Shown here: positions 42,446 through 64,000 of the stretch, piece by piece | How positions within the stretch are numbered: position 1 is the stretch's first letter | Layout: the number at the start of each line of letters is the position of its first letter | Sequence record: NC_000866.4 | DNA length: 64,000 nt | Strand: one strand, 5' to 3' | Source: Escherichia phage T4 | The notes under the pieces: generated by a model | Databases searched by the model: none | Told to the model about the DNA's origin: nothing | Seen by the model: only the letters and a program-made list of their open reading frames with translations | Position numbers and translations under genes: made by a program

Positions 42446-42916
42446 TTAATCATGTTTCCACACCCCATCGGTATTTGACCAAAGTCGCTGATTATCTGAT
42501 CCTCGCCACAGCTTTTTGGTCGGAAGATTTTTCTCATACTTCCCATCAATAATAACATCAACATATTTAAGCATTTCTAGTTGTTTAATATCTTCAAACT
42601 TATATCCTGTCCACAACCAGATATCTTTCTCCGGAAATCTTGCTTTAACCCAAGAAACTAAATTTGAAATCTCTTCTCGGTTCTGTGGATAAAGTGGGTC
42701 ACCGCCGGTTAAGGTAAGGCCTTGGATATACGATTTGCTTAAATGGGACGCAAGTTCTTTAACGGTATTCATAGTGAATAACTGTCCGTTACGAGCATTC
42801 CAAGTACTACGATTATAACAACCTTCGCATTTATGCAAACATCCAGTGACGAAGAGAACGACCCTACATCCAGGGCCGTTAACGAAATCGCATGGATAAA
42901 TTCTATCATAATTCAT
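42446..42916 (-). CDS. nrdG: anaerobic ribonucleotide reductase activating protein NrdG (radical SAM)
   Basis: ORF MNYDRIYPCDFVNGPGCRVVLFVTGCLHKCEGC... with CxxxCxxC cluster; ATG at 42914-42916 gives 156 aa. Confidence 0.9.
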   Translation of the reverse strand: MNYDRIYPCDFVNGPGCRVVLFVTGCLHKCEGCYNRSTWNARNGQLFTMNTVKELASHLSKSYIQGLTLTGGDPLYPQNREEISNLVSWVKARFPEKDIWLWTGYKFEDIKQLEMLKYVDVIIDGKYEKNLPTKKLWRGSDNQRLWSNTDGVWKHD

Positions 42917-43538
42917 CTTTATATTTCCAAGTATATCCCTTATGAATAGATTGAATTCCTTTGCAACATTTATAAACAGCAGAATGAAAAAATCCTGCAT
43001 TTCTTATTTCAGTTGCTCCAGTTAGTTCTATTGTATTTCCGTCTGGTGAATAGCCAATAACCGTTTTGGTGTTAAAGCGATTTCTAGAACTATTTTTGAT
43101 ATGCTCTTTATGATTAGTAGACAAAGTTCTTCCTGTTAGCCCATCAGATATCCTTTTTCCAAAATCATCAGGAAGAGTTACTTTAGACCTAGCTATGCTC
43201 ATTAGCTTCTTAGTTTTATCGCTTCTTTTTGCGCCACGCTGATTTTCAAATTTCTTAGCTTTTGCATACGCGTATTGTGAAGAAGTAACTTTTCTATGCT
43301 TACTATTACTCATTATCCAATATGCATCATACATCTTTCCACCATATATTTTAGCCAATAAATGGTGAGCAGTATAGTGGGCCTTATAAGTTAAAAATAC
43401 TAAGTTGTCTAAATCATCTGAACCACCCATACTTCTTGGAATTATATGATGAAGTTCATACCCGGCTTTAGTTTGACGGGGCTTAGATGGGTGTTCAGCA
43501 GAATTAACTAGATTTGAATAGATTCTGTCATAATTCAT
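42906..43538 (-). CDS. mobC: HNH homing endonuclease MobC
   Basis: 210-aa ORF with HNH motif (HHIIPRSMGGSDDLDNLVFLTYKAH); paralogous to mobB and mobD. Confidence 0.8.
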   Translation of the reverse strand: MNYDRIYSNLVNSAEHPSKPRQTKAGYELHHIIPRSMGGSDDLDNLVFLTYKAHYTAHHLLAKIYGGKMYDAYWIMSNSKHRKVTSSQYAYAKAKKFENQRGAKRSDKTKKLMSIARSKVTLPDDFGKRISDGLTGRTLSTNHKEHIKNSSRNRFNTKTVIGYSPDGNTIELTGATEIRNAGFFHSAVYKCCKGIQSIHKGYTWKYKDEL

Positions 43539-44809
43539 TGGTGCTTAACCCTATGCATGATTTCTTTATTTTTACCGAGATTAAATCCGCGTTCGTTCGG
43601 ATTTCCCAAATAACCACATGTTCTTCTTATGGTATTCATCTTTTTAGGATCAGTTTCTCCACAAATAGAACAAACAAATCCGTTTTCAGTAGGAGTCATT
43701 TCATGGGTACTTCCACATGTAAAACATTTATCTACTGGCATATTAACACCAAAATAATCTAAATGCTGTGCAGCATAATCCCACACGGCCTCAAGACCTT
43801 TTAAGTTATTTTTCATATCAGGAAGTTCAACATAAGAAATGTGACCACCTGTCGCAATGAAATGATATGGCGCTTCACGAGAAATCTTTTCAAACGGAGT
43901 AATATTTTCTTCTACTGAAACATGGAAACTGTTAGTGTACCAGCCTTTATCGGTAACATCTTTTACGCTTCCATATTTTTCTGTATCGAGTTTACAGAAG
44001 CGATAACACAGGTTTTCAGCAGGAGTCGAATATAAACTAAAAGCAAATCCGGTTCTTTCAGTCCACTGTTTAAGATGAGCATTCATTTTAGTTAAAATTT
44101 CTCGTCCAATATCACGACCGACAAGAATATTCAATTCGTGAATACCAATGTATCCTAAAGACACTGAACTTCTACCGTTTTTAAATAACTCAATTATGTC
44201 GTCATCAGGTTTAAGACGAACCCCGAATGCACCTTCTTGGTAAAGAATAGGAGCAACAGTAGCTTTAACTCCTTTTAAGGAACTAATTCTACACATCAAA
44301 GCTTCAAAACATAAATCCATTCGTTCATTAAATAGCTCAACAAATTTCTGTTCATTGAACTGTGTTCCAATATAAGAATCTAACGCGATGCGAGGAAGAT
44401 TCAGTGTTACAACACCAAGATTATTGCGTCCATCAAGAATTTCATTGCCAGTCGAATCTTTCCATACGCTCAAGAAACTACGGCAACCCATCGGAGAAAC
44501 AGGAACAGATGAACCAGTGATAGCTTTATTGTTCTTAGCTGAAATAATATCAGGATACATCCTTTTGCTTGCGCACTCTAGAGCAAGCTGTTTAATATCA
44601 TAGTTCGGATCGTCTTTATAAAGATTAACACCTTCTTCAACGAACATAACAAGCTTAGGGAAAATAGGAGTTATCCCATCACGACCAAGACCTTTAATAC
44701 GATTTTTCAGAATTGCTTTCTGAATCATTCGTTCAGTCCAGTCAGTTCCCGTACCAAATGTAATTGTTACAAAAGGAGTCTGTCCGTTTGAACTGAATAA
44801 CGTGTTCAC
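43535..44809 (-). CDS. nrdD: anaerobic ribonucleotide reductase NrdD, exon 2 (glycyl-radical C-terminus)
   Basis: 424-aa ORF ending ...RTCGYLGNPNERGFNLGKNKEIMHRVKHQ; ORF-track start is GTG, the true exon boundary lies upstream within 44810-44851. Confidence 0.9.
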   Translation of the reverse strand: MNTLFSSNGQTPFVTITFGTGTDWTERMIQKAILKNRIKGLGRDGITPIFPKLVMFVEEGVNLYKDDPNYDIKQLALECASKRMYPDIISAKNNKAITGSSVPVSPMGCRSFLSVWKDSTGNEILDGRNNLGVVTLNLPRIALDSYIGTQFNEQKFVELFNERMDLCFEALMCRISSLKGVKATVAPILYQEGAFGVRLKPDDDIIELFKNGRSSVSLGYIGIHELNILVGRDIGREILTKMNAHLKQWTERTGFAFSLYSTPAENLCYRFCKLDTEKYGSVKDVTDKGWYTNSFHVSVEENITPFEKISREAPYHFIATGGHISYVELPDMKNNLKGLEAVWDYAAQHLDYFGVNMPVDKCFTCGSTHEMTPTENGFVCSICGETDPKKMNTIRRTCGYLGNPNERGFNLGKNKEIMHRVKHQ

Positions 44810-45845
44810 TTCATCAATGTGTTCAGTAGAGTTCGCTACTTCTCTACCCGTTTATATGAAACAATGTAATTTGGATAATTGTCATCTAAACACAAATCTT
44901 TAATACGACTTGGGTGGAGTTTTAAATCTTTAGCAGCATCCACAAATGATTTATAGATATTGTCATTTATTTTAACATATTCTGGGACGGGATGAATTGT
45001 TATTTTTATATCTATAACATTTGGATGATTACTAACCTGTTCTTCAGAGCATTTAAGAAATTTTGCAGCTGATTTAAAACTTCTAAATTTATTTCCGGAT
45101 TTTAAAGCTATAGAAACAGTCTTTTTAGCCGTTCTACTACCAATATTATTTTTAACATGAGCTTCACTTCTACTATTATTTTTATAATGCTCAATCAATT
45201 TCTCTCGTATCTTATCTTTATGTTTTAAAGATAAGATTTTACCTTTATGGGCATTACTAAGTTTTTGCTTATGTTCTTCTGAATCCGGATATTTGTTAAA
45301 TTTATATCCACCTATAGATTTATTAAGAATAAATTCGTTATTAAAATATTTCCTAATAAGCATTTCTTCATGTTTAAGGGCCGATTCATAAGAATCAAAA
45401 ACTTGAAGAATTATCCACTTAGCTTTATAATCTTTAAGCTTTTCTTTAACAAGCTTAGATGACGAATTGTATTCTTTCCAATTTGTATCTTTACCATATA
45501 TAGTTTTGAATTTTTTAAAACCTATATAAAAAGACTTATCAGGAAATCTTACCATATAGGTAAATGCTACAGAATTGGCAATTTTTAAGCTTTTTCTTAA
45601 TTTCCATTTCATCGTTTCACCTCGTATTCATATTTATACGAGGATAAACAGCTGCATGTCACCATGCAGTTCAGACTATATCTTCAACTCTTAGAGTTGT
45701 CTGCCGTTTCGGGTCGCTTGACCCTACTCCCTTACATTCATCAGGGATAGTCGTTGGGCATTTACAGCTACTGCTGATTTAGCAACGGATTGTCTCAGTG
45801 AGAGTTTCCCGTTTTAGGCAGATTTTACATGAGCTTGACTTACGT
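44810..45845 (-). ncRNA. group I self-splicing intron in nrdD, carrying the I-TevII ORF
   Basis: About 1 kb between the two nrdD exons; minus strand contains the conserved group I element AAGAUAUAGUC (about 45700-45725) and an intron-encoded GIY-YIG ORF. Confidence 0.8.
44836..45612 (-). CDS. intron-encoded GIY-YIG homing endonuclease I-TevII
   Basis: 258-aa ORF MKWKLRKSLKIANSVAFTYMVRFPDKSFYIGFKKF... with GIY-YIG motif. Confidence 0.88.
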   Translation of the reverse strand: MKWKLRKSLKIANSVAFTYMVRFPDKSFYIGFKKFKTIYGKDTNWKEYNSSSKLVKEKLKDYKAKWIILQVFDSYESALKHEEMLIRKYFNNEFILNKSIGGYKFNKYPDSEEHKQKLSNAHKGKILSLKHKDKIREKLIEHYKNNSRSEAHVKNNIGSRTAKKTVSIALKSGNKFRSFKSAAKFLKCSEEQVSNHPNVIDIKITIHPVPEYVKINDNIYKSFVDAAKDLKLHPSRIKDLCLDDNYPNYIVSYKRVEK

Positions 45846-46385
45846 TAACTCATAAGCTTGGAATGCATCGTATACGTCTTTTTCTGTTTTAGATTGAGCA
45901 TAATTCAACGCATCAGCGATTTGCCATTTTTCTGCATCCTCAATATGTTTTGCATAGGTGCGTTTAACATAAGGAGAAAGTACTTTATCTACATTCGCAA
46001 AAGTCGTTCCGCCGTATTGGTGAGAAGCAACTTGCGCAGTAATTTGTGCCATAATTGCAGTAGCAACTCCAATTGATTTAGGAGTTTCAATCTGCGCATT
46101 ACCAAGCTTAAATCCGTTTTCAAGCATTCCTTTTAAATCTACTAAACAGCAATTAGTAAATGGAAGAGCAGGGGAATAATCAATATCATGCACGTGAATA
46201 ATTCCGCTTTCATGCGCTTTCATAATAAAAGACGGGACCATATTTTTGGCAATGTGTTTAGACACAATACCAGCCATAAGGTCCCGTTGAGTTGGAAAAA
46301 CACGAGAATCTTTATTAGCATTCTCGTTTAAAAGGTCTTTATTAGTTTTATGAATTAATCCTTCAATTTCTTTTTCAATTGTCAT
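45840..46385 (-). CDS. nrdD: anaerobic ribonucleotide reductase NrdD, exon 1
   Basis: 181-aa ORF with NrdD N-terminus; the ORF reads a few codons into the intron before the stop. Confidence 0.88.
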   Translation of the reverse strand: MTIEKEIEGLIHKTNKDLLNENANKDSRVFPTQRDLMAGIVSKHIAKNMVPSFIMKAHESGIIHVHDIDYSPALPFTNCCLVDLKGMLENGFKLGNAQIETPKSIGVATAIMAQITAQVASHQYGGTTFANVDKVLSPYVKRTYAKHIEDAEKWQIADALNYAQSKTEKDVYDAFQAYELT

Positions 46386-62799: not shown

Positions 62800-63078
62800 T
62801 TATTCTTTAAATCTAATCAATTTATTCATAGACTTTGAAACTTCGGCACGAACCTCATGTAGATTTTTGAGCTGTTCAAGACGCTGCGTATAGTAAGCAA
62901 TTTCATCTTCTTCGAGACAGTCCTGCGAATCTTCTTTAAGATAACGTGCATAGTCCTGGAAAGCGTTACGGACTACTTCCTGGAAGTCATCAAGACTTTG
63001 AATTTTCTTAGGAGCAACAGATACACGACGAGGGGCAGTATAATACTCATAACCAAACCCTGCGCTTAATTGAGCCAT
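62800..63078 (-). CDS. hypothetical protein (vs.3 position)
   Basis: ORF 62800..63120; likely ATG at 63076-63078 ([14 protein letters not shown]...) overlapping the upstream stop. Confidence 0.5.
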
Positions 63079-63380
63079 TAGTATTTTTCCTCTGGTTGGA
63101 ACACTGCACGACAAGCCCACATACTGGCTTCTTTGAGTTTCGTTTTAGCAATAGTTAACTGATCGAGACTTTCAGCATAATTCTTCGCGAATTCACAGTC
63201 TTCGCAATTATCTAGTGCTTCCCAGAATTCATCATATAAAGCATCAAAGATAAGTCCTAAACGAACTTCAGCGTCTTTAATAGCATTTACTTTACCGATT
63301 TTCTCTTCAGTATGTGGTTTATAACCCTTAATATCTTCAATCATATTTGACTTCCTCACCAGTACATAATACGTATTCAA
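63078..63380 (-). CDS. acb2: probable Acb2-like anti-CBASS cyclic-nucleotide sponge (vs.4 position)
   Basis: ORF-track start is TTG; first in-frame ATG gives about 88 aa ([17 protein letters not shown]...); assignment by synteny and from memory. Confidence 0.55.
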
Positions 63381-63556
63381 CTAAACGAATAGGTTCATGA
63401 ATGCCATAGCCTTGAACAGAAATTTCTGTCGTAGGATAAATTCCATCAATATCACCCATATTCCACGCTTCATTAAATTGCTGTTCGCCTGAGTTACTAA
63501 ACCACTCGCGAAAGCATTTAGCACATCTTCAGAACCTTCAATAATTATCTTTGCCA

Positions 63557-63919
63557 TTACAAACTTTCAGTAAAGGTACGAGCGATAACGTCGCGCTGCT
63601 GTTCCGGAGTCAGAGAGTTAAAGCGAACTGCATAACCGGATACACGGATGGTCAGCTGCGGATATTTTTCCGGATGCTTAACTGCATCTTCCAGAGTTTC
63701 ATGACGCAGAACGTTAACGTTCAGGTGTTGACCACCTTCAATTTTAACTGTAGGTTGTGGCTCAATTTCAATTTCACGGGCATGCAAACCATAGAAAATT
63801 TCTGGGTCTACAAAAGAGTCCTCTTTAAAGGTTTTAGAGACAATAATTCGTGCTTGAATACCATCTTCAAAATAAATAGTACCTTTATGTGTGCCTTCAA
63901 GAATTTGATATGCTTTCAT
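63557..63919 (-). CDS. GrcA/YfiD-like autonomous glycyl-radical cofactor
   Basis: 120-aa ORF ending ...[31 protein letters not shown] with the glycyl-radical motif RVSGY. Confidence 0.85.
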
Positions 63920-64000
63920 ATAAACCTCAATTAGAAAATAAATTTATCCAAGATTGTTCTTTAATTAAAAATGGCTCAGAATCATATGCCATTAAACTTT

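Follow-up and report, generated by a model that had tools for sequence, protein, structure and literature searches.

The window analysed here, a 64,000-nt stretch of the Escherichia phage T4 genome (NC_000866.4), contains a 120-aa open reading frame ending in a glycyl-radical motif, and the locus raises the question of which enzyme this small protein serves and how the phage acquired it. The original prediction, made from the sequence, held that the C-terminal half is nearly identical to enterobacterial GrcA (YfiD), that the gene was recently captured from a host, and that, together with the phage nrdD/nrdG genes, it suggests protection or repair of glycyl-radical enzymes during infection. The reading frame was found exactly at 63557-63919, with an ATG start in the list of open reading frames; its strand, left unstated before, is the minus strand. 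The radical glycine is present, as translation of 63626-63646 on the minus strand gives RVSGYAV. This interval is bacteriophage T4 vs.6, encoding Y06I, and both the gene and its function in the repair of pyruvate formate-lyase (PFL) are already known.

The 1 kb around vs.6 (63000-64000) was 100% identical to X04567, a clone-based T4 record from the 1980s in which the gene is ORF 63.1, and 99.6% identical to complete T4 genomes. At position 63702 (gene nt 218, codon 73), the window carries A (CAT, His73), and the re-sequenced T4 genome (T4T, HM137666), E. coli grcA and most relatives carry G (CGT, Arg). Since the window agrees fully with X04567 but only at 99.6% with modern T4 genomes, the reference may here carry a strain variant, or a sequencing mistake of long standing. 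In the denV-regB interval, the T4T annotation has vs.6 flanked by vs.7 and vs.5. Its Shine-Dalgarno sequence is placed 6 nt upstream of the gene, its stop codon shares bases with the vs.5 ATG (TAATG), and the three genes form a tightly packed co-directional array. A promoter and terminator scan around vs.6 in T4T gave counts equal to those of shuffled controls. An antisense frame of 127 aa with a TTG start (63551-63934, plus strand; "pot. alternative ORF 63.4" in X04567) is open and had no further support, and it was treated as a shadow of vs.6. The homologues of vs.6 are named "autonomous glycyl radical cofactor GrcA" in many related phage records. The features discussed below are collected in Table 1.

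Table 1. Coordinates, strand and supporting evidence of the features in the window.
Feature	Position	Strand	Evidence
nrdG, radical-SAM activase of the phage anaerobic ribonucleotide reductase	42446..42919	-	Pfam Fer4_12 2e-50, Radical_SAM
nrdD, two exons (ORFs 43535-44809, 45840-46385)	43535..46385	-	Pfam NRDD 2.7e-122 + Gly_radical; NRDD 1.5e-40
vs.6 (Y06I; formerly ORF 63.1), autonomous glycyl-radical cofactor, GrcA/YfiD homologue	63557..63919	-	ORF; X04567; T4T; Pfam, NCBIfam, PDB
Host-derived patch, gene nt 179-356, residues 60-119	63564..63741	-	Identity to E. coli grcA; GC/GC3
Gly95 codon, predicted radical glycine (= GrcA G102, PFL G734)	63635..63637	-	Translation RVSGYAV; alignment offsets to 6OWR and PFL 697-759
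Sole patch difference from E. coli grcA: CAT His73 vs CGT Arg	63702	-	Comparison of window, T4T and E. coli
Phage-type 5' half (residues 1-59), AT-rich and diverged; homologous to the disordered N-half of GrcA	63742..63919	-	Profile-profile match; motif
GAGG, the vs.6 Shine-Dalgarno sequence; overlaps the stop codon of vs.7	63925..63928	-	Sequence reading; T4T annotation of vs.7/vs.6/vs.5

We compared Y06I with family, structure and protein sequences. The results showed matches to Pfam Gly_radical (PF01228; E 9.6e-18), to the NCBIfam GrcA model TIGR04365 (E 1.7e-44, 151.1 bits, model positions 25-126 only) and to PDB 6OWR, which is E. coli GrcA/YfiD (E 4.5e-41), and residues 58-120 aligned without a gap to PFL 697-759 among the PDB sequences (E 2.8e-25). 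These scores put the family matches well outside anything that chance would give. In BLASTP, identity to E. coli GrcA was 73% over residues 22-120. The predicted likeness of the C-terminal half to enterobacterial GrcA was borne out, and the alignment proposed as a check yielded anything but low identity: 59 of the last 60 residues in the window, and all 60 in T4T, are those of E. coli GrcA. Y06I also has the stand-alone organisation of GrcA/YfiD (TIGR04365; InterPro IPR011140), being a 120-aa product with its own Shine-Dalgarno sequence, start and stop among unrelated small neighbours. Its C-terminal Gly_radical domain is of the PFL type, as indicated by the PF01228 match, by the 59/60 identity to GrcA 68-127, and by the RVSGYAV loop with G95. 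The TIGR04365 score lies below the equivalog cut-off (151.1 vs 170 bits) because the N-terminus has diverged, indicating that Y06I belongs by that criterion to a divergent phage subfamily (PHROG 1209, labelled "unknown function") rather than to the strict equivalogs.

To the N-terminal half, DNA comparison was blind: the first 178 nt of vs.6 showed no similarity to E. coli grcA and were essentially unalignable with it, and the T4 N-half alone matched no NCBIfam family. Homology appeared only when profiles were used. Comparison of 11 phage N-halves with 20 bacterial GrcA N-halves by hhalign gave a probability of 93% and an E-value of 3.3e-7, with 27% identity over 59 collinear columns, a result that extends the homology to GrcA residues 1-60 as well; the motif ARxIVSKxFxED is conserved in the phage-type N-half. 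This collinear match argues that vs.6 is neither a fresh capture of a whole gene nor a fusion to an unrelated N-terminus.

Homologues of vs.6 were found in 1587 phage records, among them Tequatrovirus, Mosigvirus, Jiaodavirus, Karamvirus, Slopekvirus, Pseudotevenvirus, Krischvirus, Aeromonas T4-like phages, T5-like Tequintavirus and a jumbo Yersinia phage. Leaving aside the T-even groups of E. coli and Klebsiella, identity of the 3' half to E. coli grcA was 63-84% (~0.3-0.57 at third positions). Full-length homologues whose 3' halves have diverged (72-84% nt identity, ~50% at third positions) occur in Karamvirus, Slopekvirus, Pseudotevenvirus, Krischvirus, Aeromonas T4-like and T5-like phages. 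Among the grcA genes of 80 species, there was no close donor for CC31, leB, Miller, Matisse, Cognac, the Aeromonas phages, the T5-like phages or fHe-Yen9-04, and the third-position identity of these phages to the 80 species was ~0.5-0.7. On these figures their genes look unconverted or anciently converted. In the Aeromonas phage 44RR2.8t and the T5-like phages HildyBeyeler and Spc35, the homologue lies in or beside a tRNA cluster, with tRNA-Ile and tRNA-Met immediately upstream, a neighbourhood unlike that of T4.

The 3' half of T4 vs.6 has a different composition from the 5' half. GC and GC3 rise from 0.33 and 0.18 in the 5' half to 0.48 and 0.41 in the 3' half, compared with 0.49 and 0.43 in E. 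coli grcA. The 178-nt patch is identical to E. coli grcA at 177 positions in the window and at all 178 in T4T. From nt 179 to the stop codon, 182 of 185 nt are identical, and the differences are at nt 218 and at nt 357-358, in the last two sense codons. The E. coli grcA allele that matches the T4T patch is present at ≥99% identity in 5156 of 5426 complete E. coli genomes. When positions 43001-64000 were searched against the 5426 genomes by megablast, the sole matches were the vs.6 patch and a weaker echo in pflB; pflB was rejected as the donor, being ~79-83% identical vs 100% for grcA. The patch codes for the portion of the protein that docks into PFL, namely beta-strand y-beta1 with the glycine loop and C-terminal helix.

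The T4 patch has an identity of 0.978-0.983 to E. coli grcA, and E. albertii grcA has 0.956 (0.867 at third positions). The patch is thus nearer to E. coli grcA than the E. albertii gene is, indicating that the transfer is younger than the split between the two species and ran from host to phage. The claim of a recent capture therefore holds for the 3' half, where the patch is 99.4-100% identical to E. coli grcA at the DNA level, but not for the gene as a whole, whose 5' half is old and diverged. Judged from sequence comparison, vs.6 is a full-length, anciently diverged grcA homologue with a recently overwritten 3' half.

We then compared the patch across phage genera. Between T4 and Mosigvirus, the flanks are 63-70% identical and the vs.6 5' half differs by 11%, and the patch is 97-98% identical; this low divergence relative to the flanks indicates that the patch post-dates the split of the two genera or has spread since. 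A copy of E. coli grcA nt 199/200-384 at ≥95% identity was found in 637 phage records, and a copy of K. pneumoniae grcA nt 202-~370 at ≥90% in 134 records, mostly of Klebsiella phages (106 of them at 95-99%). All patch matches start within grcA nt 199-202, leaving the 5' half uncovered; across the collection, the first 199 nt of E. coli and of K. pneumoniae grcA found no match in any phage record. Enterobacter cloacae grcA had no phage match above 95%.

The Klebsiella phage Shinkou (Jiaodavirus) illustrates the second type of patch. With a GC3 of 0.59, its 3' half shares no more than 84.7% identity with E. coli grcA; 124 of 126 nt (alignment columns 201-326) are identical to K. pneumoniae grcA. 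Within these columns the K. pneumoniae and E. coli genes differ at 19 sites. Shinkou has the K. pneumoniae base at 18 of them and the E. coli base at one (neither at none), T4 has the E. coli base at all 19 (K. pneumoniae 0, neither 0), and Matisse (Slopekvirus) is mixed, with 7 K. pneumoniae bases, 9 E. coli bases and 3 sites with neither. The Klebsiella patch of Shinkou stops near column 326 and is shorter than the E. coli patch of T4. Over the last ~55 nt of Shinkou vs.6, 44/55 are identical to K. pneumoniae and 46/55 to E. coli, and the protein ends in ...TEAL, not ...TESL, the distal 3' end coming from another source. The K. pneumoniae grcA used here came from a 5.37-Mb chromosome mis-filed as "plasmid unnamed2" in PLSDB (CP125156.1). 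PLSDB also files as "plasmid 2" a chromosomal K. aerogenes NCTC10006 sequence (LR134122.1), in which grcA is annotated as truncated and is frameshifted after ...HPEK, probably through an assembly error.

The E. coli-type and Klebsiella-type patches share the same 5' junction, at the start of the codons for a universally conserved 10-residue stretch. Measured against the structured half of YfiD (PMC8683613), this junction falls six residues in, and it would be where homologous recombination between diverged copies resolves. With a Klebsiella-type patch at the same 5' junction, the phage gene has thus been overwritten by the host gene on at least two occasions.

The nrdD/nrdG block named in the original prediction (42446-46385) is real. 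It comprises nrdG (radical-SAM), mobE (HNH), the nrdD 3' exon (NRDD and Gly_radical), the I-TevII reading frame and the nrdD 5' exon. The nrdD gene is split by a segment carrying a 258-aa GIY-YIG/NUMOD1-like reading frame at 44836-45612 (I-TevII), which marks the classic T4 nrdD (sunY) group I intron. Both nrdG and mobE start with MNYDRIY, and their first 24 nt are identical at 21 of 24 positions (ATGAATTATGAYAGAATYTATYCA; 42896-42919 and 43515-43538, minus strand); the insertion of mobE seems to have duplicated or borrowed the 5' end of nrdG. In the ORF finder, the nrdG frame runs upstream to 43000, into mobE.

In T4, vs.6 and nrdD/nrdG are ~17 kb apart. Among a few sampled records, EC105, CC31, RCIP0020 and kp20 each have both a vs.6-like gene and nrdD. 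The Aeromonas phage ZPAH1 has a grcA-like gene directly after nrdD-nrdG, followed by thioredoxin and glutaredoxin genes, and the jumbo Yersinia phage fHe-Yen9-04 has a vs.6-like gene downstream of nrdD with one unannotated reading frame between them. The ZPAH1 protein carries a 9-residue basic C-terminal extension (YPKQKGKNK).

Published biochemistry bears directly on the target of Y06I. E. coli YfiD and T4 Y06I have been reported as ~14-kDa spare parts that restore O2-cleaved PFL (Wagner et al. 2001, BBRC 285:456, Knappe group, as cited in PMC8683613), indicating that the restoration experiment proposed by the original prediction has, on that citation, already been done for PFL. Rescue is described as needing radical installation by PFL-AE and a complex with the cleaved PFL (PMC8683613; J Biol Chem 2021). 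YfiD and Y06I are the only validated spare parts (PMC8683613). In YfiD, residues 61-127 are structured and substitute for the PFL C-terminus, and the disordered residues 1-60 aid binding and activation; truncated YfiD showed ~four-fold lower activation, and its binding was not measurable by ITC (PMC8683613). Among T4 reading frames of unknown function, vs.6 is one of only 11 conserved in all 5 T4-like genomes studied by Nolan et al. (2006). For mutants of T4 vs.6, no phenotype in vivo was found in the literature.

Several other explanations were weighed against these data. That Y06I is a spare part for the phage NrdD, activated by NrdG and repairing the O2-cleaved anaerobic ribonucleotide reductase, would fit the presence of nrdD/nrdG and vs.6 in one T4 window, the gene order in ZPAH1 and fHe-Yen9-04, the nucleotide-metabolism role guessed for vs.6 by Nolan et al. 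(2006), and the speculation in PMC8683613 about spare parts for other glycyl-radical enzymes. However, BLASTP of Y06I against the product of the T4 NrdD C-terminal exon (exon 2) gave a best E-value of 2.5, that is, no pairwise similarity, and the RRTCGYLG loop of NrdD is preceded by a segment rich in cysteine (CFTCG...CSICG); a replacement for this segment and RRxCGY loop could hardly come from Y06I, which has no cysteine at all. The alignments of Y06I to PFL 697-759 and to GrcA also speak against an NrdD target, and PFL is the sole Y06I target to have been demonstrated (PMC8683613). We consider an NrdD spare part very unlikely and rejected it on the exon comparison and the cysteine content. 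Of the predicted protection or repair of glycyl-radical enzymes, the PFL part thus stands, backed by the biochemistry cited from PMC8683613, but the NrdD part does not. It is equally hard to credit that Y06I is a decoy or modulator, whose phage N-terminus titrates the host PFL-activating enzyme or occupies damaged PFL and so redirects fermentation. The N-terminal half does govern binding and activation of YfiD (PMC8683613), and the phage N-half, strongly diverged from GrcA yet conserved among phages, could change partner preference or regulation; but Y06I shares its radical glycine, loop and entire docking half unchanged with the functional host protein, and the assay cited from PMC8683613 reported restored activity, not inhibition.

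Concerning the origin of the gene, a recent capture of the whole host grcA would account for a C-terminal half that is 98-100% identical to E. coli grcA at the DNA level and host-like in GC. It is highly improbable given a 5' segment of 178 nt with no grcA similarity, a GC3 of 0.18 and a product sharing just 27% identity with the GrcA N-half, and given that the 5' 199 nt of the two host genes are matched nowhere in the phage records and that many phage groups have full-length homologues with diverged 3' halves; DNA alignment, GC3 and the profile comparison led us to reject it. The host-identical stretch could instead be an artefact, stemming from host DNA contamination, from a chimeric assembly or from conversion while T4 was passaged for decades on E. 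coli in the laboratory; contamination would look like the 178/178 match of T4T to the commonest E. coli allele. Yet the same junction and patch occur in X04567 and in the 637 phage records, which were sequenced independently and come from many countries and hosts, the copies carry scattered private substitutions, Klebsiella phages have a parallel patch of Klebsiella origin, and the vs.6 reading frame is seamless, which leaves the chance of an artefact close to nil.

PFL is the source of formate, and T4 shuts off host gene expression. The reductant of class III ribonucleotide reductase, T4 NrdD included, is formate (PMC4493059). Since PFL yields this reductant, the association of vs.6 with nrdD/nrdG is plausibly better read as a metabolic one, through formate supply. 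Following the published mechanism, O2 would cleave the activated host PFL at Gly734, and Y06I would bind the truncated PFL. A radical-SAM protein of the host, the PFL-activating enzyme, would then place the glycyl radical on Y06I, at Gly95 by homology, and Y06I's structured C-terminal half would stand in for the lost PFL C-terminus, restarting the conversion of pyruvate and CoA to acetyl-CoA and formate. With host gene expression stopped, a phage-made spare part may sustain PFL in microaerobic or anaerobic hosts, and a running PFL could in turn sustain ATP, acetyl-CoA and formate, the last as the reductant for the phage NrdD/NrdG. At sequence level, the comparisons show an old phage grcA homologue whose PFL-docking 3' half was overwritten recently by a host allele, through homologous recombination; Tequatrovirus and Mosigvirus took theirs from the grcA of E. 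coli, the Klebsiella Jiaodavirus phages from that of Klebsiella. Taken together, Y06I is very probably a GrcA/YfiD-type spare part for PFL, with a formate-to-NrdD role that we infer from the above, encoded by an old gene with a host-overwritten 3' half. The adaptive value of the patch, like the formate-supply rationale, is put forward in the same spirit.

On balance, we lean slightly towards a recurrent host-to-phage conversion in T4-like phages, in which a ~125-178-nt segment that docks into PFL and is recognised by the activase is overwritten by grcA of the current host genus, and the phage N-half is retained. The gene itself adds nothing new, as it encodes a validated spare part (PMC8683613) and is annotated as GrcA in many phage records. 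What is added, at sequence level, is that only the PFL-docking half is host-derived, and from different hosts in different phage lineages; an incomplete literature search found no description of a mosaic structure or a host-derived patch in vs.6. If the conversion is ongoing and selected, it would be a clear natural case of a virulent, host-DNA-degrading phage matching an auxiliary metabolic protein to the host enzyme, and the matching would work through homologous recombination with the host chromosome. The host-specific, DNA-identical patches document in compact form how virulent T4-like phages have recombined with host chromosomes in nature, and could serve to measure the frequency of phage/host exchange. 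The path from PFL through formate to the phage NrdD offers an explanation, open to testing, for the presence of the gene in phages whose hosts are facultative anaerobes.

Among known systems, Y06I most resembles E. coli GrcA (YfiD). Both are stand-alone proteins of ~14 kDa with the RVSGYAV loop, residues 61-120 of Y06I corresponding to GrcA 68-127; the N-terminal halves are collinear, homologous at the profile level and share the motif ARxIVxKxxFxED; and activity on O2-cleaved PFL is reported for both (PMC8683613). However, Y06I is 7 residues shorter and lacks the bacterial invariant NSFWLLD segment and Cys31, its AT-rich N-half is only ~27% identical, and grcA occupies the chromosomal ung-grcA locus, whereas vs.6 sits in an early-region gene array of the phage. 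The C-terminal glycyl-radical domain of PFL PflB (693-759; PDB 1H16, 2PFL) is the piece for which Y06I substitutes, but there it is the tail of a 759-aa enzyme, while Y06I is a separate polypeptide. The T4 NrdD domain of the NrdG-activated class III ribonucleotide reductase matches PF01228 as Y06I does and is encoded in the same genome, yet it differs in its Cys-rich segment, its RRTCGYLG loop and its activase, and has no detectable pairwise similarity to Y06I. The C-terminal 60 residues of Y06I also match the short GrcA2 and GrcA3 proteins (NCBIfam NF008341, NF038360; 78-80 aa) with E-values of 1e-26 to 2e-30; these proteins lack the ~60-aa N-terminal half that Y06I has kept, and Y06I scores under their cut-offs.
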